Notes: generated by a model not told the origin, from the sequence alone. DNA of 64,000 nucleotides from an uncultured bacterium (GCA_965369865.1 CBDURU010000003.1:36560-100559); one strand, 5' to 3'. Shown: positions 7,947 through 55,619, numbered from the stretch's first letter. Made by a program: numbers and translations.

Positions 7947-7950
7947 AGGC

Positions 7951-13009: not shown

Positions 13010-13256
13010 AAATTTTTTAATGGCTGGCTGGGAGATCACCAACAAGCTTGTATGGCTGGAAGCCAAACGTCGCATGTTGGCGGCACCCAGGCTAAATCCA
13101 TCAAAATCGGATTTAATTTTATTTAATAAGGGTTAATAAATATGGGCTGGAATGCCAACCCCGTCCCGCGGTTGGAATTTTGACCGGTGCCGACCGCGTC
13201 CTGGAGTTGTTGATAAAGTGAAAAATCATCTTGGACAGCAGTGAAGTACTATAATT

Positions 13257-20000: not shown

Positions 20001-20440
20001 ACATCGGAGAAAAATAATGAACCGATCGGGAGAGTTCCCGGAGCCATTACGATGCCTTTAACATCAAAAATTGTGAACTCCGTTTCGGTGTCGAACGGGT
20101 GGGTGAGAGTAAAATCGACAACAAAAAGACCGTTTGGCGGGTCCGATTGCCCCGGCGGCAGAACGACAGACAGGCTGAAAGTGTCGATGAAGATTTTCGT
20201 CAGGTTGAAGTGGAAATCTGTAGACCTGTCCGGGATTGTATTAACCTGATTGGTCCCGGCCTTGATAACTATGTCGTACGAGCCCAGCATTTGATGGTTA
20301 TTCACATTACTGCTGGAATTTGTTAATCCTGAATCCTGGCCGGTGCTCACTGAGGGTGTTACCGGATTTTTCGAGCATCCCGGAGATGCAAACACGCCAG
20401 CCAGTAAAAAAATAATTAGAGTCAGGGCGATTCTGTTCAT
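17033..20440 (-). CDS. Giant surface lipoprotein, array copy 4 (most downstream on the minus strand). Architecture: conserved N-terminal module, PPC domain, LVIVD-like beta-propeller.
   Basis: 1135 aa. Signal peptide with Cys22 (…LAGVFASPGCS). The N-terminal ~380 aa is shared with the three upstream genes and with 47591..49537. PPC-like segment CDPDANNDF…DYKDFYEF…GQYFIRVYT…YVLKL. The C-terminal half has repeats such as GDYAYIIPNSQGLEIFSINP and DGYLYLGTGGRGLKVFDLY. GGAG RBS. Confidence 0.7.
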   Translation of the reverse strand: MNRIALTLIIFLLAGVFASPGCSKNPVTPSVSTGQDSGLTNSSSNVNNHQMLGSYDIVIKAGTNQVNTIPDRSTDFHFNLTKIFIDTFSLSVVLPPGQSDPPNGLFVVDFTLTHPFDTETEFTIFDVKGIVMAPGTLPIGSLFFSDVDETQLENADGFTRWWNPAEFTQSGVFGYIENQFANTPGAELTASVNPYRYFADILDNLEGLQPVFLEPLNNDMGRGVFTTGTANTRRYNVRFPMLPAPDFRFSYVIDACWALPAPNPPLEVPDDFPIEANQPEAFNLVLVDKVNTLYYDVDNGVGGGVLQLKLNVHDWQGQALGDIAAQVESVRIFSPDLFPGGVSAIFDSQTALKASYTADLTGTALPASAGEVLVAVKVKSAGGPDYNQGFTYPAPDTSVAAWQTLILDIPEVTCDPDANNDFMEAFPVSFDSEIYDQVCLPNDYKDFYEFQITGGYAYDAKIELFCDVSLTKVGLYDSTHTLVSEDDVVGGSATIPLSDPGMETGQYFIRVYTSNPSQIAPYVLKLTGPFASPDNPVDITPDGLFLEPTFIWIHDNYAIMGGDRLWIYDISNPSNPLFLQAFDYTINDYATFNYPYLYYSDNNDLSLLDLTTPEAPVSYPDIITFDSWSLLYSMCSNSTHLYLSWFDNPMGDYYLLFYDISSDPTNPIELHNFVAPYSCDDLDLMDPEGPATSLLMTIYNELYSYLIEDPLNPQLLATHTYPANNVIQETVVNDGYIYTAVYDTIVHQGYTHILNTNILTPKGSVNVPGTARSIDISWPYVTIGDGPAGFSVCDATDPDNPQYDSTVPMVTDGKDVAAVGDYAYIIPNSQGLEIFSINPPGSPSLSRQKVVNYCISLVIKDGYLLVVDYNKAVKTIDISNPANVYVAAEFWVNDVLRDMSLDQNLLMTAGGKHWSLNDATDPLAITDLAYTVETHDINQILLQGDHAYVAINDPAKTVRIYSVAIPSAPVYVTSITFPSAVRDIMYYSPNMYYALQNSIEIYTADAPMPPAYVGSYSNSLDIHYDLTSYGSKMYIMTSGELQITDLTNPDVPVHVAALPLPGVNWLSEIYVDGYYAYAYGFYRIPEICSIWPPDCPAKLGYLYDGMTWAPSDLVTLDGYLYLGTGGRGLKVFDLY
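18851..19207 (-). other. PPC (bacterial pre-peptidase C-terminal)-like domain inside array copy 4. Approximate boundaries, residues ~412-530.
   Basis: DANNDF…DxxDFYxF…(G)xYxxRVxxxxxxxxxYxL pattern characteristic of PPC domains. An equivalent segment occurs in the other three array members (e.g. CHGDANNDFADAF…DYRDFYFF…). Confidence 0.5.
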
Positions 20441-20501
20441 AACTACACTCCGCTAGTGAATTATTTTTATTCTGCCAATATAAATGGACTAATTGTTTAA
20501 C

Positions 20502-23500
20502 TCAATACAGGTCATAGATACTTAAACCAGTATCCCCGGAAGCCAGGTAAATAAGATCATCTACAATAACCATATCGGTTGTATAGTAACCATGATCTCC
20601 GAACAGTATTCCCAGGTTGACCGCTTCTTCCGGCGGCCACACATTACATAGATACGCAGGGGAAAGTCCACTTGCGTAAGCGAACTGCCCGTCAACCTCA
20701 ATTTCCATTAAATAGGAGGGTGGCCCCGATGTAAGCAGAACGGAATTTATGAACGTTGGATTGAGCATATTGCTCGCGTCGACAATCTCAATCCTGTCAA
20801 GCGCCGCAATATACATTATGTCATTTTGAACAATCGCCTTCGTTGGCACGTTGGATGGGGTGTAAGTAGCGACATGATTAGGCAGTGCGGGATTCAGAAG
20901 TGAGTATATCTCAAGGTTACCGCTGGGAATTATCATGTCATCCCCGTAAAAAGAAATACTTGCGGGATTTGTACCGGGGAGGGTGATTGTGTTGACCAGG
21001 ACAGGGGGATCGAACATGTTCAACTCGAAGATATGCAACGAGGCAAACCCGGCTTCCGTTGTTATGTAAAGATAATCATTGTAAATGTTCATGGTCCGGG
21101 TCGGGTTGGGAAGCGAACCGGAGGCGATCTGTGTAATTAAGGCGGGATTGCTGACATTAAGGAACTCCCAGCCATTAGTGCCTACCAGGGCGGCCATGCG
21201 TCCGTTATCATAAGCCAGGAAATTAATCTTTCCTAATGATGTCAGGTATTCGGTTTCGAGGAAAATATTTTCGGGATCGGAGATGTTTACAATTTTAATC
21301 GCATGGTAGCCAAATGAAAATTCAGCGGTATATAAGTAGTCTCCATCGATAAAAATCATACCAGCCTGGTTAAGGACTTCGAGCCGTCCCAGGTCCTGGG
21401 GTGAAACCGGATTGCTGACATTAAAAACCTGCATTCCCGCATCATAGGGAATAATGCAAAGAATATCTCCATTTACCGCAAGGTCAATGCCGATGGAAAC
21501 CAGGGGTACCGATGTAAGCAGGATTGGTGATCCGGGATTTGTCAAATCTATAGTGGCCAGGCCGCCAGTATGATCGGCAATGTATGCGTACGGCCATTCA
21601 GCGTCAATGCCACACGCTAATCCGGGAGTTGCGGTTTCTCCAAGTTCGCTGAAACCACCAATTAAATCGAACTCGAGAATGAACATGCTTTCTGTAATAT
21701 TCGGATTGGTGCCTGTGGCAATTACATATTTATCGCTGAGGGCAAAATCATAGATGGCCGCGGTTGAATGATTGTCCAGATATATAGTTGATGATGGGTT
21801 CTCAACATCAATAGCGGTAAAATTATTCTCACTCGCGCTTATGAGGATCGGTTTGGTGGCTTCGGGATACATGAGATCGAGTTGTCTGACATCTATGATC
21901 GGGCTTCCAAAGGAGCCTGCCTCAAAAGGGTAAAGAGGGTCGGTCGACCAGTTAAAGATTGTGTACTGTGTTGCTACCGGGTTATCGAAATCAGCCACGT
22001 ACAGGTGTGATGAATTCATGCAGATATCGCCGACGTCATACCCGAGGTAAGCAACGTTTTCGTGAAATACCGGGTTGGATTTATTGCTGACATCGATCAT
22101 GTTTATCTGGCCCAGCTCAGGCTCGGGGTAAGAAATGTAGTAAATGAAATTACCATAATGAGCCGATATGATTTTGGGGCCGAAAGAACCTCTTATTTTA
22201 AAAACCTGGACAGGGTTCGATGGAATTGTCATGTCGTAGATCCAAAAGAACCTGCTGTTCAATAAATATATGTAATCACCTTCCCACCAGATTTTGTATG
22301 GGTTGACATATAAGCCGCTGCCGGTAAGCACGACAGGATTGGGGGTCATATCGGTGGCAATGACATTAAAATCCAGTTCGTATGGGGCAAGTTCGGTAGG
22401 ATTGGATGTATAAACCCTGAGGTAATATATATCCGGCATCAGGTTGAGTGAATCGACATCAATAGAAGCAAGGCCGGCAGCTACAACGCTTTCAATAATA
22501 AGGCCTTGATCGGGATCGTAAAGCCCGAGTTTGGTGGGACCGGCATCGCAATGCAGATCCACATGACCCGACACTTCGAATCCGGATGGTATTTCAAAGA
22601 AATAGAAATCCCGGTAATCATCCGGGAGGCATACCTGGCCGTCGATCGTAGAACCGTAATTGATTTCAAATGCATCCGCGAAATCGTTATTCGCGTCGCC
22701 ATGGCAGTTAAGGTCGGGAATATCAAGAATCAGAGTTTGCCATGCGGCTAATGGTGCAGTGGGTGCAGGATATGACAGCCCCTGGTCGTATGCCGGTCCT
22801 CCGGACGAAACAACTTCGACAGCGAGTAAACATTCTCCGGCCTGCGCGGGATTTGCAATACCGGTAAGGTCGACCGTGTATCGCGCTTTGACAGGAGTCT
22901 GATCAAGATATGCCATTTCGATTCCACCGGGAAATAAATCGGGCGCATAGACCTTCACGCTGCCGACCTGCGACGCAATATCACCGCTGTCCTGACCCTG
23001 CCAGTCGTGGACATTCACCTGTAGTTTGAGGATCCCGGCTCCAGTCCCGGAATTACTGGAATAGTAGAGAGTGTCCGCTTTTTTTGCCAACGCGAGATGA
23101 AAAGCTTCTGGCTGGTTAGCTTGAATCGGGAAATCATCGGGCACAGCGGATGGTGGATTGGGATCGGGTATTGCCCAGCATCCGTCTATAACATAAGAAA
23201 ACCTGAAATCCGGAGACGGTAACATCTGGAATTTTACGATGTACCGGCGTGTATTGCTGCTGCCGGTTTTAAACACACCCCTCCCGTTGTTACTGGTAAG
23301 CGCCTCTGAATAAACAGGCTGCATACCGTCGGTCGGGTCGAGGATATCGGCGAAATATTTATACGGATTGATATTAGCAGTCAGCAGGCCGCCGGTTGTA
23401 TTTGTAAACAGGCCGTCCATGTAGCCGAAAATGCCCGGCTGGGTGAATTCTGTTGGATTCCACCATCGTGTGTACCCATCCGCATTGTCAACCCGGGTCT

Positions 23501-23945
23501 CAGAGGGTCCGGTAAACATCGCGGAGCCAATGTTGAGCGTCCCGGGCGTCATCACGATTCCCTTTACATCAAAAATAGTGTACTCAGTCTCGGTAGTGAA
23601 AGGGTGAGTAATCGTGAAATCAACGGCAAAGACCCCGTTAGGAGGATCGGACTCGCCTGGTATTAATGCGATAGACAGGTTTAGCGTATTTACAAAAATT
23701 TTCGTCAGGTTGAGATGGAGATCCGATGATCTATTGGGCAGAATTTCCGCTTCCATGCCGACCGGGTCCAAAGAAATATCATAGGAACCCAGGCACAGAT
23801 GGTTTAATTGATTGCCCTGTACCAGGTTTTGAGGCTCTCCCAGGATTAACCCGGGATCGGGTGTCGATGGATTTCCATGACAACCCTGGATTGCTACTAG
23901 AATGATCGTAAAAATTAGTACCAGCCACGGAAATTTCCGGCTCAT
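20502..23945 (-). CDS. Giant surface lipoprotein, array copy 3
   Basis: 1147 aa. Signal peptide plus Cys (…VAIQGCHGNP). Conserved N-terminal module (LGSYDISLDP…NLTKIFVNTLNLSIALIPGESDPPNGVFAVDFTITHPF…NADGYTRWWNPTEFTQPGIFGYMDG…), a PPC-like segment, and a divergent LVIVD-like C-terminal half ending DTGLSIYDLY. GAGGTG RBS. Confidence 0.7.
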   Translation of the reverse strand: MSRKFPWLVLIFTIILVAIQGCHGNPSTPDPGLILGEPQNLVQGNQLNHLCLGSYDISLDPVGMEAEILPNRSSDLHLNLTKIFVNTLNLSIALIPGESDPPNGVFAVDFTITHPFTTETEYTIFDVKGIVMTPGTLNIGSAMFTGPSETRVDNADGYTRWWNPTEFTQPGIFGYMDGLFTNTTGGLLTANINPYKYFADILDPTDGMQPVYSEALTSNNGRGVFKTGSSNTRRYIVKFQMLPSPDFRFSYVIDGCWAIPDPNPPSAVPDDFPIQANQPEAFHLALAKKADTLYYSSNSGTGAGILKLQVNVHDWQGQDSGDIASQVGSVKVYAPDLFPGGIEMAYLDQTPVKARYTVDLTGIANPAQAGECLLAVEVVSSGGPAYDQGLSYPAPTAPLAAWQTLILDIPDLNCHGDANNDFADAFEINYGSTIDGQVCLPDDYRDFYFFEIPSGFEVSGHVDLHCDAGPTKLGLYDPDQGLIIESVVAAGLASIDVDSLNLMPDIYYLRVYTSNPTELAPYELDFNVIATDMTPNPVVLTGSGLYVNPYKIWWEGDYIYLLNSRFFWIYDMTIPSNPVQVFKIRGSFGPKIISAHYGNFIYYISYPEPELGQINMIDVSNKSNPVFHENVAYLGYDVGDICMNSSHLYVADFDNPVATQYTIFNWSTDPLYPFEAGSFGSPIIDVRQLDLMYPEATKPILISASENNFTAIDVENPSSTIYLDNHSTAAIYDFALSDKYVIATGTNPNITESMFILEFDLIGGFSELGETATPGLACGIDAEWPYAYIADHTGGLATIDLTNPGSPILLTSVPLVSIGIDLAVNGDILCIIPYDAGMQVFNVSNPVSPQDLGRLEVLNQAGMIFIDGDYLYTAEFSFGYHAIKIVNISDPENIFLETEYLTSLGKINFLAYDNGRMAALVGTNGWEFLNVSNPALITQIASGSLPNPTRTMNIYNDYLYITTEAGFASLHIFELNMFDPPVLVNTITLPGTNPASISFYGDDMIIPSGNLEIYSLLNPALPNHVATYTPSNVPTKAIVQNDIMYIAALDRIEIVDASNMLNPTFINSVLLTSGPPSYLMEIEVDGQFAYASGLSPAYLCNVWPPEEAVNLGILFGDHGYYTTDMVIVDDLIYLASGDTGLSIYDLY

Positions 23946-23996
23946 GATTCACCTCGGTACTCCGGTAATTTATTTGTGCTAATGATATTTATCCGA

Positions 23997-26900
23997 CTAG
24001 TACAGATCGTAAATCCTCAGACCGGAACCTAAGTGCATGACATATAAAATCCCGTCTTCAACAAGGAGATTCAGAATAAACCCATAATTATTAGGACCGA
24101 ATGGCTCACTGTAGACGGCAGGCGTTTCGGGCGGCCACAAATTTACAATTACCGGATTATGTCCCATGTCAGAAACATAGGCGAACTGGTGTTCTACAGC
24201 CATAAATTGCATATTGGGTGCATATGGTAATCCGGTGTACCAAATAGCAACAGGTTGCCCCGAACCATCGAGTTCTACCGTTTCAAAGTAATCGGTATTG
24301 CAGACATAAAGGTAATCGTTCTGTATCGCGATATCCCGCACGGTTGCTGTCGAGGTGAAATCGCCAACATATACCGGGATCAGGTTTGATGTGATATCAA
24401 CAATTTTCACATCATCGAGCGCGTACGCATACAGGTAGTCTAAATCGGTTGACAGGGTTAACCCATGAAGTTCAGAAGTCCATGATGGATCAGGGACAGG
24501 GATCACACCAGGAAAAGTAGCCAGGTCGTAAACCTTGATTGTGCCGTTCGATAAGGTGGCATAAGCAGCCCAGTATGTGACTGCGACTGATTGCACGTAC
24601 GAGGGAAAAGTCTCTGAATACGCGAGTACCGGGTTGTACAGGTCTGTGCACTCGTACAGCGAGAATTTTTGATCGAGTGTTCCGACAGCCAGAATATTAT
24701 GTGCCCCCAGGTACAGTGCCATGCACATTGGTGAATCATCAAGCAAAACTTCCCCTTCTATGGTTGGGTTAGCGGGATCGGTCAAATCAAGGATTTTAAT
24801 AGCGTTATAGGATCCCCCTGATTCAATGAAATACCCTGTATCCCACCTGATCCTTCCATCAACAGGAATGTTAAGGCAAAGGACCCTGGCTGTTTCGGTC
24901 AGGAGAATCGTGTCTGATGCGTCATAAATTGAAAAACCGGCGTGTTCAGGGATATTCAGTAATTTATCCTGGTCGATCAGAATACTACATGATTCCGATA
25001 CAGTGGGAACTGTGCTGTTGATTGCCAGCGCTGAGAGGTTTGAAAAATCGACCACTGTAATTCCTATATTGTCAGCGATATATGCAGTATTTACCTTGGC
25101 GTCGATATTGTAACCGTACCCGGGGATAGGCAGTACATCCTTTGGAGAGAAGCCCAGCAGGTCGAGGTATGTATAGGATGAGATATAACCATCGGGAACC
25201 CCGTCAATATGTGTTTTCAAAATCTCGTTACCTACAATTGCTATATCAAGATTATACGTACCAAGCGCCGCAGGATGTGTGGCTTTTAATACTGGCAAAA
25301 CAGGATTTTCGACGTTGTATGCTCTCATGTCCTGACTTGTCATAACGATCAGGGCGGTTACGGGACCATCTGTATCGTATATGCCAAGCTTTAAAACGTT
25401 GTGCTGGCAATTAAAGTGGTTAATTTCCTGCAGATCGAGCGGGTCGGTGTAATCGTAAATATATATCCATGAACCCACCCCATCATCGAAAGCGATAAAC
25501 ATATACTCTGAATCAATCGTAATAAATTCGATTTGGCCTGGCAGTGACAGGATGTTCTCATGGAGAACCGGGCTGGATGGATTGCTGTAATCAACCATGT
25601 TAAGTATTGCAGGATTTTCAGTCCATCCTCCCCAGTAGTAAACCCTTCCATCGTATTCCGCAGGGGTCGCCCCCACCTGATCGTAGATTCTGGACAGAAA
25701 AACAGGATTGTAGAGATCGCTGGTGTCATATGCCCATGAACCCCTGGGTCCGGTCAGGATTGCAGTATCACCATGTGTTGTCAGCCAGCTTGCATCAAGG
25801 TCAAGGTTGTTTGGAGTAATGTCAACAGGATTTATTGGGGTGATATTTACCGTTTCAAGGTCCAAATTCAACTGGTATAAAAATGGATTCGGCTGAGATG
25901 ATTCTGTAACCTCAAGGTAATACCAACCGGGATCGGGCTTCCACCCGACAAGTTCTAATTTCACAACTCCATTGTTAGGGGTGTCTCCATCAAGAAGGTT
26001 TAAGTCCTGATCCCACAGAATCAACTTGGAAGTGGGCACATCGGAATATAAATAGACCCAGCCGTCGATATGGGTACCGGGTAGAATTTGAAACATGTAA
26101 AAATCGGAACTGTCGACAGAACTGCACAAGGTTCCAATCACCGTGTCCTGGAACGAAACCAGCTCCGCTTCAAGATGTGAATTGTTCGCATCCCCGACGC
26201 ATTCAGGATCGGTTATATCAACGGTAATGACCTGGTAGGCTGAGATATCAGCCGAGGGGGCGGGTGCCGTGCCCTGCTGGTAACTCGGTCCACCTTTGGA
26301 ACCAACCCTTGCGACAACCTGTGCCTGACCGGCATGTGTCGGAACAGCCAGGGAATATAAATCAGAAGTGAATCTGGCTTTGAAGTCATTTTGATCGAGG
26401 AAGGTTGCAGTGACACCGGTGCCCATTAAATCCGGAGAGAAAATCCGGACAGCATCAATCTGGTTCTCAAAATTTCCCGCCATCTGTCCCTGCCAGTCAT
26501 GGACATTTATCTGGAGTTTAAGTATTCCACCCCCGGTAGCGGTCTCAATGTCATAGTAGAGAGTGTTGATTTTTTCAGCCAGTGCAACATGATATGCTTC
26601 AGGCTGGTTCGCCTCGATCGGGAAATCGCTTGGCACGTCATCAGGCGGGTTCGGAACCGGGAGATCCCAGGAACCATCAATTACAAACGCAAACTTAAAA
26701 TTGGGTGTAGGCGTCATCTGGAACAAAACCTCGTATCTCCTGGTGACGAAGCTTCCCGGAGTAAAAATACCTCTGCCCTGGCTGCTGGCGAGATGTTCCA
26801 AGTAGACAAGGTTCATTGGGTCCTCAGGGCCGAGAATATCGGCAAAATATTTATATGGGTTAACCGTCGCTGTGAGCTGTCCACTTTCAGCATTAGTGAA

Positions 26901-27431
26901 CAGCCCATCCGTGTAACCGAAAATACCCGCCTTGGTGAATTCAGTCGGGTTCCACCACCGGGTATAACCATCAGCATTCAACACCTGGGTTTCATTGGTA
27001 TCCGAGAACATCGTTGCTCCGACCGCGAGTGACCCAGGGACCATTACGATGCCTTTAACATCGAATATGCTGAACTGGATCTCAGTTGTGAATGGATGTG
27101 TGAGTGTAAAGTCCACAACAAACAATCCGTTTGGGGGGTCCGACGCACCCTGGTCGAGTACGACTTCCAGGTTCATGGTGTCCAAAAAGATTTTTGTAAG
27201 GTTCAGATGCAGCTCACCGATCCGAAGCGGGATTGCTTCGATTGACATATCCAATGGATTGATCTCGATATCATAGGCGCCAAGATTGATGCGATTACCA
27301 GTGCTTGATTGATCTTTTAAAGACCCTGCAGGATCCCCGGTTGAAGGACTTGCAGGATTGCCCTGGCAGCCAAGTGAAACTATTAGCAAAAGAATTACTA
27401 CCAGTGAGAAAAATGTTCGTTGCTGATACAT
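23997..27431 (-). CDS. Giant surface lipoprotein, array copy 2
   Basis: ORF-track start is 27446. The first Met codon sits inside the AAGGAGG RBS, so the start is more likely the Met at 27431 (MYQQRTFFSLVVILLLIVSLGCQGNP). Conserved N-terminal module, PPC-like segment (CVGDANNSHLEAE…DSSDFYMFQ…GWYYLEV), divergent propeller-like C-terminus ending GSGLRIYDLY. Confidence 0.7.
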   Translation of the reverse strand: MYQQRTFFSLVVILLLIVSLGCQGNPASPSTGDPAGSLKDQSSTGNRINLGAYDIEINPLDMSIEAIPLRIGELHLNLTKIFLDTMNLEVVLDQGASDPPNGLFVVDFTLTHPFTTEIQFSIFDVKGIVMVPGSLAVGATMFSDTNETQVLNADGYTRWWNPTEFTKAGIFGYTDGLFTNAESGQLTATVNPYKYFADILGPEDPMNLVYLEHLASSQGRGIFTPGSFVTRRYEVLFQMTPTPNFKFAFVIDGSWDLPVPNPPDDVPSDFPIEANQPEAYHVALAEKINTLYYDIETATGGGILKLQINVHDWQGQMAGNFENQIDAVRIFSPDLMGTGVTATFLDQNDFKARFTSDLYSLAVPTHAGQAQVVARVGSKGGPSYQQGTAPAPSADISAYQVITVDITDPECVGDANNSHLEAELVSFQDTVIGTLCSSVDSSDFYMFQILPGTHIDGWVYLYSDVPTSKLILWDQDLNLLDGDTPNNGVVKLELVGWKPDPGWYYLEVTESSQPNPFLYQLNLDLETVNITPINPVDITPNNLDLDASWLTTHGDTAILTGPRGSWAYDTSDLYNPVFLSRIYDQVGATPAEYDGRVYYWGGWTENPAILNMVDYSNPSSPVLHENILSLPGQIEFITIDSEYMFIAFDDGVGSWIYIYDYTDPLDLQEINHFNCQHNVLKLGIYDTDGPVTALIVMTSQDMRAYNVENPVLPVLKATHPAALGTYNLDIAIVGNEILKTHIDGVPDGYISSYTYLDLLGFSPKDVLPIPGYGYNIDAKVNTAYIADNIGITVVDFSNLSALAINSTVPTVSESCSILIDQDKLLNIPEHAGFSIYDASDTILLTETARVLCLNIPVDGRIRWDTGYFIESGGSYNAIKILDLTDPANPTIEGEVLLDDSPMCMALYLGAHNILAVGTLDQKFSLYECTDLYNPVLAYSETFPSYVQSVAVTYWAAYATLSNGTIKVYDLATFPGVIPVPDPSWTSELHGLTLSTDLDYLYAYALDDVKIVDITSNLIPVYVGDFTSTATVRDIAIQNDYLYVCNTDYFETVELDGSGQPVAIWYTGLPYAPNMQFMAVEHQFAYVSDMGHNPVIVNLWPPETPAVYSEPFGPNNYGFILNLLVEDGILYVMHLGSGLRIYDLY

Positions 27432-27461
27432 GTATTCCTCCTTCAAATTTCAAATTATTAA

Positions 27462-30400
27462 TCAGTACAGGTCCCAGATTCTTAATCCGAAACCTGAAGC
27501 ACGTTCGTAGTAATAGCCGTTATTAATTAAAACCTGGTTTGGTTTTACCTCGAAATCGGTACTATATAATGGGCCTATAACTGTTGGTGCATCGGGAGGC
27601 CAAATTCTCATTACCGTTGGTGGAGTCCACCAGTAGGGTTGACAAATAGCGAACTGGTTATCGACCGCAAGGTACTCTCCGTGTGGAGCATCAGGATGAG
27701 TTTCATGGGAAAGGTATACAGGTGATTGCGGAATGGAAATATCCGCAATTTCGAGAGTGTCACTGGTAGCTATGATCAGGTAGTCACCATACACCTCGAT
27801 ATTTTTAGCGTAGCTCAGAGGTACGTATGTTACCTGGTAAATCGGGTTGAGTGGATTAACAATCGAGTAAACAAGGATTTCACCACCGGCAAGCACATAC
27901 ATTATGTCACCTTTGAATTTAATACTCATTGGGATGCTGGTAGTAGCCAAACCGGTTTGATATGTTAACAATGTCCAAACCGACAAATCCCATACACTGA
28001 TCTGTGGTACGTTATTACCGACATATAATGCGTCCCCATTTAAGGCAAGGCAGGAAACATCGCTGGCGGCTGCGTACGGTCCATCCACCGTCATGGACCA
28101 AGGGTCGGGGCAATCAATTGCCAAGAGGAAAGGACCGCTCGTGGCGACTATCAGTCGATCCCCGTCTACTGCAATCCTTGACGGGTCATAATCGATTCTC
28201 TGCACCATGGTTAAAGCCGCATTAGCAGGATTGCCAATATTAAACACTTTAATTGCGTGGTATAGATTGCTGGATTCGATGGTATACAGGTAACTGCCGC
28301 TTATGACCATATCTTTGGGACTGGCCAGTCCGACGACACTCCCGGAACCGGTAACACTAAAGGGGTCGCCAATATCATAAGTGATCACCCCTGCCCTTCT
28401 ACACGCAGTGTAAAGCGTTCCATTCTCAAAGACTATATCACCAATATTTATTGGCAGGGGAAACGAGAGATTACCCCAAAATAATGGGAGATCCGGATTC
28501 GTAACATCAATAATCGAAATAGTTTCATCGCTGTTTAGACACAATGCGTAATTCCCATCTGTCTCTACAATGTTGGTTTCCTGGAACAGCAGGATGTTAC
28601 CGCCAGCGGTTATACCTCCAGTCTCAATTTTTAATGAACTGAAGTAATATTGCCAGGTAGAAGTGGATTGGCGGAGGACGAAGACGTAATTATCCCTGGT
28701 ACAGATGTCGATTATGTCCATATTCGTCCATGTGAAGACATCCGGTTTCGGGATCGAACTTTTGTCAGTGACATTGAAGAGATCAAGCCTTGCATTGTCA
28801 TACAAAACCGCAAGCCAGTAATCAGGTCCGACGCTATCGTTCACGAAATCAAGTTGATCGGGTTGACCGTTGATGGCAAGTTTGTGGATAAGCTCGGGTA
28901 CTTCTGGATTGTTGAAAATATAGTATATATCGATCGCGAAACCGGGGCTCGAATTGTAAGCTACGTAAAGGTAATCCGTTTCCCTCGCTATACAGTATAC
29001 GGCGGTTGTGTAATGCAATACATCAGGATACAGGACCTCATTTGTCGGGTCGGTGATATCGTACATTTCAATATTTGTATCACCTGGGCTTAATTCATGG
29101 ACAGAATAAATTTCGGTTATGCTGAAAGCCGGGTGTTCACTGTTGTAGATTTCAAAAAAGTTAAGGAATTCTGGTTGCAGTTTGTCTGTATGGTCGTAGA
29201 TCCAAACGCCGCCTTCAGTTTCTGTAAACACGAGGTCACCGGCAACAGCAATTTGTTGCGGGTAAAAAAACAGATCTTCGGGAGTCACATTAACCGGGTT
29301 ATCGGGAGTTACATTCGTAAGATAAATATCCGGTTCGATCATATACAGGAATGCCTGGCCTGATGTCTGGGTCAGCACCCGAACATAATATTCACCCGGC
29401 ATAATTCCCAGTAAAAATAGATCAATCACCGCGTATCCGCCTGATACAGCTTCCTCGTATATCAGAGATTCAGTATCGTCGTAAAGGCTGAAAGTAGTCG
29501 GTTCAGCATCACAGAAAAGTGTCAGGTCGCCATATACATCGCTACCAAGCGGCAGCGACAACAGGTAAAAGTCCTTGTAATCACCGGGCGCACATAACTG
29601 ATCGATTGTCGGATTCTCGAGGTCGAGAAGTAATGCCTCGCTGAAATCGTTATTTGTATCAGCCGAACACTCCGGGTCGGGAATGTCCAGGATCAATGTT
29701 TCCCATGCAGCGACCGAATTATCAGGTGCCGGATTGCCGGTTCCCTGGTCGTAATTCGGACCGCCTGCCGATGTCGCCTTCACGGCCAGAAGAGTTTCTC
29801 CGGAATGTGTTGGCGCGGCGATTCCAGTCAGATCGGCTGTATACCTTGCCTTGATCTCGAGTTCGTCCATGAACAATGCATCTGCTCCGCCTGAGAAAAG
29901 GTCCGGAGAATATATCCTTACGCCGTCAATTTCCGCCGCGATCGCGGCCGCATTCTGCCCCTGCCAGTCATGAACATTCACCTGCAGGCGAAGGACACCA
30001 CCGCCTGTACCCGATTCACTGTCATAATAAAGTGAATTGACTTTATCAGCGAGTACTAAGTCATATGCTTCAGGCTGGTTCGCCTCGATTGGAAAATCAT
30101 CAGGAACCGCATCTGGCGGATTCGGGACTGGTATATCCCAGCAGCCATTGATCACGTAACCGAATAATATGGTCGTAGCAGGTGCACCCGGAAAACGGAG
30201 GTTGTATCTCCTCGTGTTGCTGGCTCCATCTGTGAAAACCCCCCTGCCCATATCGTTATCAAGTGGTTCATAATAGACCGCGCTTAAAGGGTCTTCGGCG
30301 CCAAGGATATCCGCGAAATATTTATACGGGTTCACAGTCGCCGTAAGCTGGCCGGCGGTAGTATTAGTAAACAAGCCGTCCGTATATCCGAATATGCCCG

Positions 30401-30908
30401 GCTGGGTGAATTCTGTTGGATTCCACCATCGAGTATACCCGTCGGCGTTTTCGAGACGTGTTTCACCCGCATCCGCAAATAGCAGGGGTCCGATATTCAA
30501 TGTTCCGGGGGTCAAAACAATTCCCTTCACATCAAATATTGAGAATTCATTCTGTTCATCTAACGGGTGGGTCAATGTGAAATCCAGAACGAACAGCCCG
30601 TTCGGAGGATCGGACAGGCCGGGGATAACCACAATGTCAAGGCCCATCATATTTACGAAAATTTTAGTCAGGTTAAGGTGGAGATCGCTTGACCTCAGCG
30701 GCAGGATTTCGACAGTCGAATCCCGGGTGTTGAGTTCAACCAGGTACGATCCAAGGCTGTGGTGGGACCTGACATCAGACTGTGATTCCCTTGACGTTAA
30801 ATCGGATTGCTGCTGGATATCCGGCGATGCCGGGTGTCCCTGGCATCCGATCAGCACGATTATGCTAAAAAGAACCAGAATTATCAGGGGATTTTGCGAA
30901 CGATACAT
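27462..30908 (-). CDS. Giant surface lipoprotein, array copy 1 (first gene of the array)
   Basis: ORF-track start is 30950. I prefer the Met at 30908 (MYRSQNPLIILVLFSIIVLIGCQGHP) because a strong AGGAGG lies 6 nt upstream. Same module order as the other copies, C-terminal …SGFGLRIWDLY. A ~385-bp untranslated leader lies upstream. Confidence 0.7.
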   Translation of the reverse strand: MYRSQNPLIILVLFSIIVLIGCQGHPASPDIQQQSDLTSRESQSDVRSHHSLGSYLVELNTRDSTVEILPLRSSDLHLNLTKIFVNMMGLDIVVIPGLSDPPNGLFVLDFTLTHPLDEQNEFSIFDVKGIVLTPGTLNIGPLLFADAGETRLENADGYTRWWNPTEFTQPGIFGYTDGLFTNTTAGQLTATVNPYKYFADILGAEDPLSAVYYEPLDNDMGRGVFTDGASNTRRYNLRFPGAPATTILFGYVINGCWDIPVPNPPDAVPDDFPIEANQPEAYDLVLADKVNSLYYDSESGTGGGVLRLQVNVHDWQGQNAAAIAAEIDGVRIYSPDLFSGGADALFMDELEIKARYTADLTGIAAPTHSGETLLAVKATSAGGPNYDQGTGNPAPDNSVAAWETLILDIPDPECSADTNNDFSEALLLDLENPTIDQLCAPGDYKDFYLLSLPLGSDVYGDLTLFCDAEPTTFSLYDDTESLIYEEAVSGGYAVIDLFLLGIMPGEYYVRVLTQTSGQAFLYMIEPDIYLTNVTPDNPVNVTPEDLFFYPQQIAVAGDLVFTETEGGVWIYDHTDKLQPEFLNFFEIYNSEHPAFSITEIYSVHELSPGDTNIEMYDITDPTNEVLYPDVLHYTTAVYCIARETDYLYVAYNSSPGFAIDIYYIFNNPEVPELIHKLAINGQPDQLDFVNDSVGPDYWLAVLYDNARLDLFNVTDKSSIPKPDVFTWTNMDIIDICTRDNYVFVLRQSTSTWQYYFSSLKIETGGITAGGNILLFQETNIVETDGNYALCLNSDETISIIDVTNPDLPLFWGNLSFPLPINIGDIVFENGTLYTACRRAGVITYDIGDPFSVTGSGSVVGLASPKDMVISGSYLYTIESSNLYHAIKVFNIGNPANAALTMVQRIDYDPSRIAVDGDRLIVATSGPFLLAIDCPDPWSMTVDGPYAAASDVSCLALNGDALYVGNNVPQISVWDLSVWTLLTYQTGLATTSIPMSIKFKGDIMYVLAGGEILVYSIVNPLNPIYQVTYVPLSYAKNIEVYGDYLIIATSDTLEIADISIPQSPVYLSHETHPDAPHGEYLAVDNQFAICQPYWWTPPTVMRIWPPDAPTVIGPLYSTDFEVKPNQVLINNGYYYERASGFGLRIWDLY

Positions 30909-31293
30909 TTTATGCCTCCTAATCCGGAACATCTCAGTTCGGATAGACATTAGTTGGATCTAACAATTTTTCCCGAGGATTAAAACCGTAAAGCTTGATA
31001 AAATCAGGGGGTCCTGGCTCGTCATATCGCAATAGCCCGTTGATATGATCCTCCATGAAACCATATTTCATTGTATTGAAAGAAAGTTTCAATACATTAT
31101 GAAGCTTTAAGTCACCAGTAGTCAATTGAAATATTGATATATGGAAAATTCCTGTCGTGTCCCGTTCAGGGATTAGAAATGGCCTTGCGGGGTATTCGCC
31201 TTCGCTGTGTTGTAATTTATACTTGCATTTTAAGACCGTTATGTATTATTATGCATAACGACTTGTACGGATTGTGACCCGATTAATTAAGGA

Positions 31294-51404: not shown

Positions 51405-52817
51405 ATGAAACTTCGCGAACCATATGAACAACTAGCAATTCCACCGACCGATTTCACGGCCGATCTTAATTTTCCGCCCCCAGAGAAGATTCGTATTTAC
51501 GACACGACACTTCGCGACGGTGAACAGGCTCCCGGCGTGATATTCACACCGTCCCAGAAATTCCACCTGGCCGGAACTCTTTCGGAGCTCGGTGTGCATA
51601 TCCTCGACCTTGGGTTCCCGGCGGTCGGCCCTTCCGAATGGGAAACCCTGAAGCTTGTAATTGAAGGAAAAAGGGCAGGACGGCTTAGATCCGATCTTGA
51701 ATTACTGGTGATGTCGCGCGCGCTTCCAGGGGATATCGACACCACCCTCAGGGTACTGAAGGAAACCGGTGTCGGGACCGATGAGATCACGTTGTTTATT
51801 TTCACTGCCGGATCGGATCTGCATGTGAAATACAAACTGGGGAAGATGCTCCTCAGGCAGAATTCAATCGACGAGAAGGAATGGTTGGATAGACCGGTGC
51901 AGTGGTACCGGGATGCGAACAAGCGTATGTTTGCCGACGCGATTAGTTATGCAAAAAGCCTGGGATTCAAAAAAATCGAGGCTGGGAACGCTGAAGATGG
52001 AAGCCGGGCTGATATTGAATATATAATCGAACTCGGGAAAGCAGCCATGGAAGCCGGCGCGATGCGTCAGGCATTCCCCGATACGGTCGGCGTCTTCACC
52101 CCTGAAGCGGTACGCCATTACACCAGCCGCCTGATTAAAGAGTTTCCGGACACCGATCTCGTGGTCCATTTCCATAACGATTTCGATCTCGCGACGATCA
52201 ACACTTTAACGGCTCTCAGTATCGGCGCGAATATAGCCACGGTAACCCTTGGTGGAATCGGTGAACGTGCCGGGAACGCCTCCCTGCATTCTCTGCTGGC
52301 GGCAATGAAAATGCTTTACGGAATCACCATCCCGAACTTCCGCTACGACAAGATCCGGGAGGCAACAATGCTCGCGAGCCGATTGTCCGGAATCCCGTTA
52401 CAACCCCACGAGCCGATTGTCGGATCGAATGTTTTCGCCCATGAATCGGGGATTCACACCGCTGGAATGGTCATCGATCCGAGGATTTACCAGGTAATCT
52501 ATCATAAGGATTTCGGAGGCAAGCGGAGGTTTGTCTTTGGTAAACATTCCGGAACCGCGATCGTGGAGCATGTATTGAAACTGCACAGCGATGAGCTGGA
52601 AGCGGCAGGGGTAAAGGTCACAGACGAGCTTGTGTCCCGTGTTTTGAACGAAATCAAGAAACTGAGGGAACAGCAGGCGGAGATGCGCCGCGTGGAGAAA
52701 CTTGTCGATTCGATTTACGAAAAAATGCTGCAGCTTGGAATCAGCGAACGCGATGTCGTCGCCCTTGCGAAGCAGCTTGCCAGGGACAGTGGGATTTCCG
52801 CGGCAACCTTCTGGTGA
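51405..52817 (+). CDS. HMGL-like family protein (2-isopropylmalate / homocitrate / citramalate synthase family)
   Basis: 470 aa. IYDTTLRDGEQAPGV and …HFHNDFDLATINTLTAL… are the diagnostic TIM-barrel motifs, with a C-terminal extension. I cannot decide substrate specificity from sequence alone. Confidence 0.8.
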   Translation: MKLREPYEQLAIPPTDFTADLNFPPPEKIRIYDTTLRDGEQAPGVIFTPSQKFHLAGTLSELGVHILDLGFPAVGPSEWETLKLVIEGKRAGRLRSDLELLVMSRALPGDIDTTLRVLKETGVGTDEITLFIFTAGSDLHVKYKLGKMLLRQNSIDEKEWLDRPVQWYRDANKRMFADAISYAKSLGFKKIEAGNAEDGSRADIEYIIELGKAAMEAGAMRQAFPDTVGVFTPEAVRHYTSRLIKEFPDTDLVVHFHNDFDLATINTLTALSIGANIATVTLGGIGERAGNASLHSLLAAMKMLYGITIPNFRYDKIREATMLASRLSGIPLQPHEPIVGSNVFAHESGIHTAGMVIDPRIYQVIYHKDFGGKRRFVFGKHSGTAIVEHVLKLHSDELEAAGVKVTDELVSRVLNEIKKLREQQAEMRRVEKLVDSIYEKMLQLGISERDVVALAKQLARDSGISAATFW

Positions 52818-52870
52818 TTAGCCCGAAAGATCTAAAAGTCTCTAACAAAATGAGTTTATGTTAAATTACT

Positions 52871-53102
52871 ACCGGGTGCCGCCCATAAGCGTTTAACTTG
52901 GCATTCAGGATTTCCCATATTCGATTAAAGGAACAAGAGAAGATTATAACGGATTATTTGATTTGAGCTTATGGGTGATTCGCGGTTTCAATCGACCTCA
53001 CCCACAAGCTTAGCGTGGAGTCAACTTATTAAAATCTCTCAATGACTAATCTTGATTTGAACGTTAACTCTACCTCGAACAACGCTTGTGGGCGGCACCC
53101 GG
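52871..53102. mobile_element. 232-bp repeat element R, copy 1. Terminal inverted repeats ccgggtgccgcccataagcgtt(t) … (c)aacgcttgtgggcggcacccgg. MITE-like.
   Basis: Seen directly. 100% identical to 54186..54417. ~22-bp TIRs with 2 mismatches. Internal symmetric segments (cccataagc…gcttatggg, cccacaagc…gcttgtggg). Confidence 0.75.
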
Positions 53103-53160
53103 CCAGGGACCGTGGGATTTCCGCGGCAACGTTCTGGTGATTAGCCCGAAAGATTTAAAA
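53103..53160. repeat. Diverged duplicate (A') of the last ~57 bp of the upstream synthase gene plus its downstream flank, sitting between R copy 1 and the secreted-protein gene
   Basis: ccagggaccgtgggatttccgcggcaacgttctggtgattagcccgaaagatttaaaa matches 52780..52838 (…ccagggacagtgggatttccgcggcaaccttctggtgattagcccgaaagatctaaaag) with 3 mismatches. Confidence 0.75.
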
Positions 53161-53177
53161 TAGCTCGTTAACCTCTA

Positions 53178-54044
53178 TTACATTATTGCCCTGAAGATGG
53201 AATTGGCAAGATCATTCTTGGCTTCCAGGGTGATGAATTTCCCAATGTGAGCTTCTTCGAATGGTTGAAAAGTGAAAATTGCAGTCTGTGTCTCACTCAA
53301 TATCACTTCAACCTGGTAATAGTTATTATCTAAAGGTTCGATAACAATCATACTTTCGTCCACCGAATAACCCATGGAATCCATCGTATTACCCAATGTA
53401 CTATTATTATCCCAGGTGTAATTTAAAAAACTGGACATAACCCGATTGGTATACCAATCATCAACCATAGCCTGCATTTCCTCTTCTGGAATATCCATTA
53501 TGGTCCCGGATTCCGCAGCATACACGGTTAAACTTGTACCAGCTTCGAGTACAGCACCGCTTCCCGAGATTGATCCACCGGCGAGAATACCTAGAACACT
53601 TAAACCAAGTATAACGGTGGTAGCAATCGAGGCTCCAGTCTGGCGACCACCATAATCACCCGCTTCACCCGAAAGGAGGATTGGCATGGAGTACAATGGA
53701 AAAATAGTGGTAATTTCAATATCCAGCATCCCGCTCCTGCCCCAACTTCTCGAAGGTCTTGCATTTGTCACATGCCCAAGTACGGGAGTGCCTTCGATTA
53801 AATATGTGCGACCCATCAGGACGACATCCTCAGCTATTGAAAAAACAATTTCATCTCCCTCCCGGTTTCGTTGCGAATAAAGCTGTTCCAACATAATCAA
53901 TCGAATTGGTGTACCAGGGGGAAGTGAAATAACATCAGCCTCATCCTGGCCATACAGTGGAACTCCCGGGCCGGTAAATATCACGCAAATACAAATAAAA
54001 AAAGTAACCAAATTACGAGTCATCGTGCAACCTCCAATAATCAT
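53178..54044 (-). CDS. Secreted hypothetical protein, the cargo between the two R copies
   Basis: 288 aa. N-terminal signal peptide (MTRNLVTFFICICVIFTGPGVPLYG; start probably the Met at 54023). Central Gly/Ser/Ala-rich hydrophobic stretch. No family recognised. Confidence 0.5.
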   Translation of the reverse strand: MIIGGCTMTRNLVTFFICICVIFTGPGVPLYGQDEADVISLPPGTPIRLIMLEQLYSQRNREGDEIVFSIAEDVVLMGRTYLIEGTPVLGHVTNARPSRSWGRSGMLDIEITTIFPLYSMPILLSGEAGDYGGRQTGASIATTVILGLSVLGILAGGSISGSGAVLEAGTSLTVYAAESGTIMDIPEEEMQAMVDDWYTNRVMSSFLNYTWDNNSTLGNTMDSMGYSVDESMIVIEPLDNNYYQVEVILSETQTAIFTFQPFEEAHIGKFITLEAKNDLANSIFRAIM

Positions 54045-54185
54045 TAGTATTCTAAGATTATTTTTATAATGTAAACCTTATACTGATGTCAATTTTAAAG
54101 CAATACCAATCCGGAAAATATCTGTAGCTTTCCGATCTTTTTGGACTTTGAAAACCTTTTAATTATTAATAAGCATGGACAACAT

Positions 54186-54417
54186 TACCGGGTGCCGCCC
54201 ATAAGCGTTTAACTTGGCATTCAGGATTTCCCATATTCGATTAAAGGAACAAGAGAAGATTATAACGGATTATTTGATTTGAGCTTATGGGTGATTCGCG
54301 GTTTCAATCGACCTCACCCACAAGCTTAGCGTGGAGTCAACTTATTAAAATCTCTCAATGACTAATCTTGATTTGAACGTTAACTCTACCTCGAACAACG
54401 CTTGTGGGCGGCACCCG
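54186..54417. mobile_element. 232-bp repeat element R, copy 2 (identical to copy 1), abutting the aroC stop
   Basis: Seen directly. Same TIR-bearing sequence. Followed immediately by cacccgcttataacat, the end of aroC on the minus strand. Confidence 0.75.
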
Positions 54418-54425
54418 GCACCCGC

Positions 54426-55619
54426 TTATAACATATCTATCTTATCCAAATACCTTTCATACGCTTCCTTAACTTCCCCCATCGAATCCCCGCCGAATTT
54501 TTCATTGTGAGCTTTAGCAATTTCGAGAGCTGCAACGGACTCGAGTACAACCGCTACCGATTCTACCGCCGATACATCCGTACGCTCTGTCGATTCCGGT
54601 TCAACAGGTTGACGGGTTTCGGGATCGACCGACATATGCGGCGGGTTAATGGTCGACAGAGGTTTCATCCATGCTTTCAGGCAGACCGGTTCGCCATTTG
54701 TAATCCCGCCCTCGATACCCCCGGCAAGATTGGTCTTTCGGGAGTACCAGGTTTTACGATCGGGATTATCAGCGATTGAGAATTCATCATGGGCTTCCCT
54801 GCCGCTCATGCGTGCCTGCTTTATCCCGGCACCGATTTCGACAGCCTTAATTCCCGGCACTCCCATCATCGCTTGAGCCAGTCTCGCGTCCAGACGTTCA
54901 TCCGGCAATGCGGTTGAGCCCAGCCCGGGAGGTACGTAAGCGGAAATTACCTGGACAACTCCACCGACCGTATTCCCGGTCTCCCGCGCATTTTCCACGA
55001 CACGGATAATTTTCGCGATCTGTGATTCTGTCAAATTTTTCAGTGATTCAAGTTTACCGGGACGATCCTCAATATCAAGCGAGGTCATTTGAATCGTTTC
55101 GTCATCGACAAGTAACTCCGACCCGTATTGAATTAACCTGCTACCGACGCAAGTACCGAAATTCCTCAGGTACAATTTCGCCAGGGCACCGATCGCGACT
55201 GTCATTGCGGTCGTACGTCCACTCGCGCGTTCGAGAACATTACGCGCATCGTCAAAGCCCCATTTCAGGATTCCCGCAAGGTCGGCGTGGCCTGGACGCG
55301 GATAAGTTTTTCGAATTGGGTCTCTGGAAGCCTTAAGCGGTTTGACAGACATTACATCGAGCCAGTTCCGGTGATCCTTATTTTCGATTCTGACGGCGAT
55401 CGGGCTGCCGGTTGTTATCCCGTGACGGATGCCCGAGAGAAATTCAGCGGTGTCGGATTCGATTTTCTGGCGCTCCGAACGCCCGATTCCACGCTGCCTT
55501 CGATGGAGTTCGGAATTTACAAAGTCAAAATCAATTTCAAGCCCTGCCGGGAATCCGGATATGATCCCGACCAGCGCCGGCCCGTGACTCTCCCCTGCTG
55601 TCATCCATTTTATTGCCAT
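54426..55619 (-). CDS. aroC: Chorismate synthase
   Basis: 397 aa. N-terminal …TAGESHGPAL… motif and full-length similarity to AroC (…RPGHADL…, …SGRETA-like region SGREAHDEF…). Confidence 0.9.
   Translation of the reverse strand: MAIKWMTAGESHGPALVGIISGFPAGLEIDFDFVNSELHRRQRGIGRSERQKIESDTAEFLSGIRHGITTGSPIAVRIENKDHRNWLDVMSVKPLKASRDPIRKTYPRPGHADLAGILKWGFDDARNVLERASGRTTAMTVAIGALAKLYLRNFGTCVGSRLIQYGSELLVDDETIQMTSLDIEDRPGKLESLKNLTESQIAKIIRVVENARETGNTVGGVVQVISAYVPPGLGSTALPDERLDARLAQAMMGVPGIKAVEIGAGIKQARMSGREAHDEFSIADNPDRKTWYSRKTNLAGGIEGGITNGEPVCLKAWMKPLSTINPPHMSVDPETRQPVEPESTERTDVSAVESVAVVLESVAALEIAKAHNEKFGGDSMGEVKEAYERYLDKIDML

Follow-up and report, generated by a model that had tools for sequence, protein, structure and literature searches.

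We analysed a repeat, here called R, that occurs twice in a 64,000-nt stretch of DNA from an uncultured bacterium (GCA_965369865.1, CBDURU010000003.1:36560-100559). This whole stretch, hereafter the window, belongs to a scaffold of a short-read metagenome assembly, and positions are counted from its first letter. R lies among three genes: a plus-strand gene for an HMGL-like or homocitrate-synthase-like protein (51405-52817, stop at 52817), a minus-strand gene for a conserved hypothetical protein of 288 amino acids (53178-54044; 282 amino acids as called in relatives) and the chorismate synthase gene aroC, also on the minus strand (54426-55604, stop codon 54426-54428). A repeat search in the window returned two copies of R, 52870-53103 and 54186-54419, each 234 nt long, 100% identical to each other and spaced by 1316 nt. 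The element proper, from the outer tag at one end to that at the other, measures 231 nt and covers 52872-53102 (R1, between the first two genes) and 54188-54418 (R2, with the aroC stop codon 7 nt past its end). R1 is bracketed by a 58-bp duplication of the 3' end of the HMGL-like gene. The left copy (a58, 52780-52837, plus strand) holds the last 12 codons, the stop codon and 20 nt downstream and is followed by a 34-nt filler (n34, 52838-52871), and the right copy (a58', 53103-53160, plus strand) differs from it at 3 of 58 positions. The first-pass annotation, made from the sequence alone, had described two perfect copies of a non-coding repeat with terminal inverted repeats of about 22 bp and, beside R1, a copy of the HMGL 3' end with three mismatches. 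All of this was borne out: the terminal 22-nt arms of R (CCGGGTGCCGCCCATAAGCGTT and AACGCTTGTGGGCGGCACCCGG) are 95% complementary with a single mismatch, the duplication is 58 bp long, and R contains no credible open reading frame (ORF).

A tagged hairpin unit in R and in a dispersed family

One hairpin unit, CCGGGTGCCG-CCCAYAAGC-loop-GCTTRTGGG-TGA, makes up R in two inverted copies. It has the parts of a repetitive extragenic palindromic (REP) unit, namely an unpaired 10-nt tag (CCGGGTGCCG), a 9-bp stem (CCCAYAAGC / GCTTRTGGG) and a short tail (TGA). The left unit reads CCGGGTGCCG-CCCATAAGC-(76 nt)-GCTTATGGG-TGA on the plus strand and the right unit CCGGGTGCCG-CCCACAAGC-(74 nt)-GCTTGTGGG-TGA on the minus strand. 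R1, a tail-to-tail doublet in the manner of a REPIN (REP doublet forming hairpins), thus has a left unit at 52872-52978 on the plus strand (tag 52872-52881, 5' arm 52882-52890, 76-nt loop, 3' arm 52967-52975), co-oriented with the HMGL-like gene and 54 nt past its stop, and a right unit at 52998-53102 on the minus strand (74-nt loop, arms paired at 9 of 9 positions), which has the orientation of the 288-aa gene and follows the stop of that gene at about 78 nt. The corresponding units of R2 lie at 54188-54294 (plus) and 54314-54418 (minus), the tag end of the latter being 7 nt downstream of the stop codon of the co-oriented aroC gene; a partial copy of the tag, GCGGGTG on the minus strand (54419-54425), stands directly upstream of the minus-strand tag of R2. 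Since R is made of two inverted units, what had been taken for terminal inverted repeats are the two tags with their 5' arms, and the internal symmetric block is formed by the two 3' arms lying tail to tail. The halves of R differ at an A/G position that is compensated inside each half, so that every unit has 9 of 9 Watson-Crick pairs, whereas pairing R end to end gives a wobble or a mismatch, as it does in two further doublets (L008, L039). With up to 3 mismatches allowed, the terminal 22-mer has four sites in the 64-kb window, all of them ends of R, and none in shuffled sequences. Both strands of R, whose folding the first-pass annotation had proposed to check, fold far more stably than shuffles (z = -6.9 and -7.6). 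The window holds a third, degenerate and single unit on the minus strand at 13036-13092 (CTGGGTGCCG-CCAACATGC, a 24-nt loop, GCTTGTTGG-TGA), which shows one compensated stem change and is located 169 nt downstream of the co-oriented ORF 13257-15680.

Further copies of the unit were found by scanning metagenome contigs with the first 20 nt of the unit, which returned 38 loci compared to roughly 7 expected by chance; a stricter scan of a genome collection added one locus, on a contig of a metagenome-assembled genome (MAG) labelled Planctomycetota. R has relatives elsewhere, and it is missing from the corresponding sites of close relatives of the window, which are described below. The genome-collection pattern demanded ...GCGTT and was too strict, so that its one match says nothing about rarity in GTDB genomes. 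A loose two-arm pattern applied to viral contigs gave two matches, both chance ones inside coding regions, for which reason the strict pattern was used for the single metagenome scan. No plasmid gave a blastn match to R, and a full-text literature search did not find the motif.

The scan pattern did not demand the 3' arm, and yet GCTTRTGGG-TG is present after a loop of 2-76 nt in nearly all loci. The variable pyrimidine of the 5' arm and the variable purine of the 3' arm covary strictly, with 31 C:G pairs, 8 T:A pairs and none discordant (Fisher p = 1.6e-8), and units lying outside the scan pattern carry other, compensated stems (CCTACAAGC/GCTTGTAGG, CCCACAATC/GATTGTGGG, CCCACAAAC/GTTTGTGGG, CCTACAAAA/TTTTGTAGG and CCCACAAGA/TCTTGTGGG). 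Altogether, about 60 units have the 9-bp stem and the 10-nt tag and thus form, as REP units do, a stem-loop with an unpaired tag at one end, the loops of R (74-76 nt) exceeding the usual range. G.T pairs occur in 5 units and on the tag strand only, where the opposite strand would have a C.A mismatch. Single units are far commoner than doublets; tail-to-tail doublets were seen in L005, L007, L008/L016, L021, L029, L034, L038, L039 and L048, and in doublets the pairing within a unit is perfect where end-to-end pairing is not. Several units may share a short contig (e.g. 4 in 4.6 kb of L005), and hairpins together with their flanks form tandem arrays in L024 (three units, period 129) and L023 (period 128). 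The contexts of the units are unrelated and intergenic, with no recurring neighbouring protein family. By crude ORF calls, 25 units lie at most 150 nt downstream of the stop of a co-oriented ORF and 5 are in the opposite orientation.

R is matched in layout by three doublets, L007 (217 nt), L034 (219 nt) and L038 (218 nt), and their loops are homologous to those of R side for side at a rough 60-70% identity, as compared by eye. The loops in these four doublets measure 64-76 nt; RNAalifold of the four paired the conserved arms and returned no conserved loop structure. These doublets show that a REP hairpin can tolerate a loop of about 75 nt.

A partial copy of the tag lies within 20 nt upstream of 18 of the 61 tags in the family, including the one on the aroC side of R2, compared to about 5 expected by chance. 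Partial or tandem tag copies directly upstream of complete units were noted in L005 (3526-3555), L017, L023 (935-985), L059 (10596-10760, where a 15-nt tag-containing unit is itself repeated) and at 54419-54425 of the window. Three other members have features of their own. In L010 (519-700), tandem 49-nt units start with CCGGGTGCC and continue with ACTGACAAG(T/C)CCGGCT, and may be a hairpin variant with a common tag. In L024 (376-1700), an insertion sequence (IS) of the IS481 family (HTH_32, rve and LZ_Tnp_IS481 domains) sits inside the loop of the third hairpin of the 129-nt array; IS elements that target REPs are known in Pseudomonas (PMC8450116). In L002 (1170-1500, MAG CSMAG_1386, labelled Planctomycetota), the end of a short ORF (MPKEIRADYDTNLLFPPSLENWVPDDHPARFVREIVDFMDPG) coincides with the start of a bare tag CCGGGTGCCG, and 90 nt later comes a complete long-loop unit. 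The ORF may be the N-terminus of a transposase, which it resembles; the 44-aa peptide has no Pfam match.

RAYT genes beside the hairpin and the nature of R

The first-pass annotation had proposed to look for a cognate transposase or recombinase elsewhere. REP-associated tyrosine transposase (RAYT) genes stand beside the hairpin in four loci (L033, L058, L059/L060 and L061) and are missing from the window. The Pfam domain Y1_Tnp was found in 2 of the 136 ORFs near units, in L033 and L022. In L033, 30 nt separate the hairpin from the start codon of the RAYT gene downstream of it, and the RAYT of L058, which is 85% identical to that of L033, has a hairpin at the same upstream position. The RAYT gene of L059/L060 (63% identical to L033) is preceded by two units and followed by two inverted ones, and that of L061 (64% identical to L033; MAG labelled Chloroflexota) is preceded by one unit and also followed by two inverted ones. 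In all of these loci the tag is constant while the stems vary with compensation. The proteins of L033, L058 and L059 scored 82-101 bits against the NCBIfam model NF047646, 'REP-associated tyrosine transposase' (REP_Tyr_transpos, cut-off 80), and remained below the IS200 cut-off; the NCBIfam scan covered these three, and for the L061 protein (P0067) there is a precomputed Pfam Y1_Tnp match. Among PDB structures, E. coli TnpArep (4ER8) matches the L033 protein best, and the HUH (HVHIL) and tyrosine (YIxNNPV) motifs are visible. The four RAYTs form one clade. A RAYT gene flanked by REP hairpins is the defining arrangement of REP-RAYT systems (PMC3116915, PMC5581495, PMC3733652).

The neighbourhoods of two Y1 genes hold further repeats. 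L022 (6650-7660) contains a second RAYT-like (Y1) gene, flanked by several copies of a different palindrome (GGTGGCACGCTTAGA...TCTAAGCGTGAC), and the hairpin GGTGGC-ACGCTTAGA...TCTAAGCGT-GAC of L022 resembles the R unit in its layout of tag, stem and tail. In L061 (5790-5912), the upstream region and first codons of the RAYT gene recur in part on its downstream side, with another inverted hairpin after them.

These results suggest with high probability that R is a REPIN-like tail-to-tail doublet of REP units, i.e. a non-autonomous element, of a RAYT-associated family. The kind is known but the family is new, as is its tag, and R is an unusual form of it with long loops. By analogy to known RAYT and IS200/IS605 biochemistry, a RAYT (Y1/HUH) encoded elsewhere in the genome would recognise the folded hairpin and its tag on single-stranded DNA, cut next to the tag and rejoin the ends, by which units would be spread or duplicated. 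The units in place belong to the 3' untranslated regions (UTRs) of the flanking genes and, judging from their position and orientation, probably form 3' hairpins on the transcripts.

Several observations weigh against this assignment. No RAYT gene was found in the 64-kb window, and we infer the cognate enzyme of this genome. Only five units are present in these 64 kb, a count that does not establish a high copy number; the site of R2 in close relatives is not a clean empty site; and Planctomycetota and Chloroflexota are MAG labels only. Neither a 58-bp flanking duplication nor a filler is a known outcome of REP or REPIN mobility, and a comparison of flanks found neither in any other member of the family. 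The tag CCGGGTGCCG is neither GTAG nor CGTC, and the loops of R (76 and 74 nt) are longer than the 2-20 nt reported for REPs (PMC3733652). The tag places R outside the described GTAG and CGTC families; it defines those families, however, and not REPs as a kind.

History of the locus and rival explanations

Six contigs from other samples (L045, L053-L057) represent close relatives of the window. Their identity to it is 95-96% in the HMGL-like gene and, where they extend far enough, 95-96% in the 288-aa gene and 93-94% in aroC; L054 and the hairpin-bearing contig L002 come from one MAG. In all six, the 288-aa gene comes directly after the HMGL-like gene (L056 and L057 end inside it), and aroC comes next in the four that reach it (L045, L053-L055). 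R1 is absent from all six, in which a58 is single-copy, and R2 is absent from the four reaching its site. The 288-aa gene occupies the same place in relatives that lack R and is therefore resident, which leaves the earlier proposal that R had captured or bracketed a cargo gene unsupported. Relative to these contigs, R1 brings along n34 and the 58 bp duplicated on either side of it. n34 is absent from the relatives, and neither it nor the loops of R have a further copy in the window or in any fetched locus. R1 together with the filler and the duplicated HMGL 3' end is probably a lineage-specific insertion.

In L045 and L053-L055, R2 is replaced by 24 unrelated nt and a divergent tail of aroC, the last 17 codons of which (the last 52 coding nt, in the region 54429-54480) cannot be aligned at the DNA level to the relatives (window 54426-54480 versus L053 3975-4039), while the encoded tails keep a similar pattern. 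We rejected the idea that the tail in the window was imported with R2: against homologues of 64-68% identity it is the window tail (GEVKEAYERYLDKIDML) that looks ancestral and resembles outgroup tails, and that of the relatives that is odd. Since the divergent tail is theirs, the relatives are not a clean empty site for R2. These presence/absence differences may reflect movement of the doublet as a unit; however, R1 comes with the filler and the duplication, and R2 stands in place of 24 nt and beside a divergent gene tail. R2, separated from the aroC stop by 7 nt, may predate the split from the relatives and be the older of the two copies, with R1 as a later local copy.

The right copy a58' starts with CCAGGGACCG, which matches the REP tag at 7 of 10 positions (compared by eye) exactly at the R1 junction. 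This tag-like start and the partial copies upstream of 18 of 61 tags suggest cutting and joining at the tag boundary, and the junction would fit, as a speculation, a RAYT-type cut-and-join or a template switch in replication. An HUH enzyme stays bound to the 5' end that it makes and can join this end to another 3' end. It is conceivable, and in our judgement doubtful, that RAYTs of this clade cleave tag-like sequences as well as the tag itself and connect the ends so made with other 3' ends, thereby moving or duplicating adjacent host DNA; possible traces of such activity are the 1316-bp unit of a58', the 288-aa gene and R, the 129-nt tandem units of L024 and the tag stutters. To the same doubtful reading belongs the idea that the long-loop doublet of about 220 nt, which four unrelated contigs have in common, is a distinct structured element with functional loops.

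The layout of the locus depends on a short-read assembly of a metagenome, and the two-copy arrangement or the 58-bp duplication could be a chimeric path through a strain-mixed assembly graph, with R itself real; for example, one strain might carry HMGL-n34-R-aroC and another an allele containing the 288-aa gene. Closely related strains without R do exist in public data, and another assembly of this sample (Logan contig L044), in which n34 is contiguous with the HMGL-like gene, stops 6 nt into R1, so that an independent assembler breaks exactly there. Both the perfect identity of R1 and R2, which is the expected product of repeat collapse, and the mosaic of mismatches between a58 and a58' may reflect such collapse and strain mixing. 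Of the three differences, one (position 9, A or C) also varies between related contigs and the other two are each unique to one copy, for which reason the mismatches need not date the duplication. The earlier deductions, a recent event from the identity of the copies and an older duplication from the divergence of a58', are thus both insecure. On the other hand, the junction between the right end of R and a58' has only 1-2 nt in common with any alternative path and must therefore be present in the reads of some genome, and four contigs were reported with the same gene and the same neighbours; we regard a chimera as unlikely. Still less probable, and in our view very much so, is that R is a recombination site at which a circle carrying R, a58' and the 288-aa gene integrated into a resident R, similar to an IS26 translocatable unit or a cassette. 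Direct identical copies around a gene with no short target duplication, the exact abutment of a58' on R1 and the tandem units of hairpin plus flank in L023, L024 and L059 would agree with it, but the 288-aa gene and its upstream region have the same position and left junction in the six relatives lacking R, at about 95% identity like the flanking genes, the supposed recipient allele HMGL-n34-R-aroC was not found, and no recombinase was found within about 10 kb of R. The suggestion of an integron-like cassette is not supported either, given the same residence of the gene. In integrons, attC sites lie in one orientation in an array near or derived from an intI integrase, and their cores follow the consensus RYYYAAC ... 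GTTRRRY, which by reading of the sequence is absent from R; moreover, the element is two-fold symmetric, and there is no integrase within about 10 kb.

The first-pass annotation had also considered a miniature inverted-repeat transposable element (MITE) or a small structured RNA. R is indeed a small, non-coding, structured repeat of a mobile kind, yet its ends are the outer halves of inverted REP hairpins, and a MITE of the terminal-inverted-repeat type is not supported because the compensatory changes favour pairing within each hairpin and the associated enzyme is a Y1/HUH RAYT instead of a DDE transposase. Long, variable target duplications are made by elements of the IS1634/IS1549 type, and a classical MITE of such a DDE family could account for the 22-nt terminal inverted repeats and for the 58-bp direct repeat bracketing R1 as its target-site duplication. 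We consider this extremely improbable: the 34-nt filler displaces the duplication from R1 on one side, the flanks of R2 and of eight other doublets showed no direct repeats other than chance-level matches of 9 nt, single units far outnumber doublets, and there is no DDE gene with these ends, the only DDE element seen (the IS481-family one in L024) having its own. Among the loci obtained, no autonomous parent element with ends of R was found either. As to RNA, R might be mainly a bidirectional 3'-end hairpin, acting as terminator or stabiliser for convergent genes, whose spread would be secondary. This has a low probability as a rival, and it is compatible with the assignment to a RAYT-associated REP family, not exclusive of it. 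In favour of it are the strong bias towards positions 3-150 nt after a co-oriented stop codon, the restriction of G.T wobbles to the tag strand, the folding of both strands far better than shuffles, and such action of REPs reported in other bacteria (PMC3733652). Against it, the hairpin units have no T-run terminator (the only scan match near R, 54174-54203 on the minus strand, spans the left-end boundary of R2), the long loops lack conserved structure, and the conserved unpaired 10-nt tag, the tag stutters and the adjacency of RAYT genes point to recognition at the DNA level. Nor is there an Rfam family: Rfam 15 gave no match at gathering score in the window and, in 52700-54500, only chance-level snoRNA matches with E > 2 (scan at E <= 10). 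A free-standing RNA gene is therefore not supported, while a co-transcribed 3'-UTR hairpin is plausible.

With regard to the genes at hand, the 288-aa protein has 36 homologues, carries an N-terminal signal-like segment and gave no Pfam match. Farther away in the window, four adjacent minus-strand ORFs of 1135-1162 aa (17033-30950), two with LVIVD repeats and two without a Pfam match, resemble a tandem array of paralogues. Two neighbouring plus-strand ORFs of about 820 aa (5499-10440) match just the C-terminal end of the YfhO membrane-protein family, to which one more among the 27 scanned ORFs gave a match as well.

Relation to known repeat systems and significance

The reference systems are REP/BIME with TnpArep in E. 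coli and the REPINs of Pseudomonas fluorescens (PMC3116915, PMC5581495, PMC3479197). The family of R resembles them in its short hairpin with a conserved unpaired tag, in its extragenic location near gene 3' ends, in its occurrence as singles, inverted doublets and clusters, in the Y1/HUH RAYT gene flanked by inverted hairpin copies, and in presence/absence differences between close relatives. It differs in the 10-nt tag CCGGGTGCCG in place of GTAG, in the loops of 64-76 nt of R and three relatives, doublets of about 220-230 nt with the tags at the outer ends, and in that the same tag and stem stand beside RAYTs in MAGs labelled as different phyla. The described REP super-families are tagged with GTAG or CGTC, their loops measure 2-20 nt, and they form head-to-head or tail-to-tail dimers (Di Nocera et al. 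2013, PMC3733652). Common to them and the family of R are the order of tag, 5-13 bp stem, loop and tail, tail-to-tail dimers with spacers of 20-100 bp, G.T pairs in the stem, sub-families with compensated stems and IS elements inside repeats; the family of R has neither tag consensus, the loops of R are longer, and the strings CACAAGC and GGGTGCC are absent from PMC3733652. With IS200/IS605 elements, R shares the Y1 HUH enzyme superfamily, the recognition of hairpins on single strands and the lack of a short target duplication. The ends of those elements, however, are hairpins of the same orientation on one strand around the transposase gene, and the proteins of L033, L058 and L059 exceed the cut-off for RAYTs but do not reach that for IS200. 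Correia/NEMIS elements, which are MITEs that make TA target duplications and have DDE-type parents, are similar to R in their size of about 100-250 bp, their terminal inverted repeats, their intergenic position and their likely co-transcription with neighbours, whereas the inverted ends of R are REP halves and its family shows no target duplication.

REP-RAYT systems have been studied mostly in Proteobacteria. To these the present analysis adds, from uncultivated bacteria of sediments and the subsurface, a REP family that has a new recognition tag and a RAYT clade to itself. Repeats of this kind also matter for annotation, as they interrupt assemblies and can make a resident gene look like part of a composite transposon. 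REPIN-RAYT systems have been described as vertically inherited and lineage-specific (PMC5581495; bioRxiv 10.1101/2021.07.10.451892). The same tag and stem beside RAYTs in Planctomycetota- and Chloroflexota-labelled MAGs would mean, if the labels hold, that this family is very old or moves horizontally, and if its RAYTs do move adjacent DNA, REP doublets could bracket and mobilise genes.

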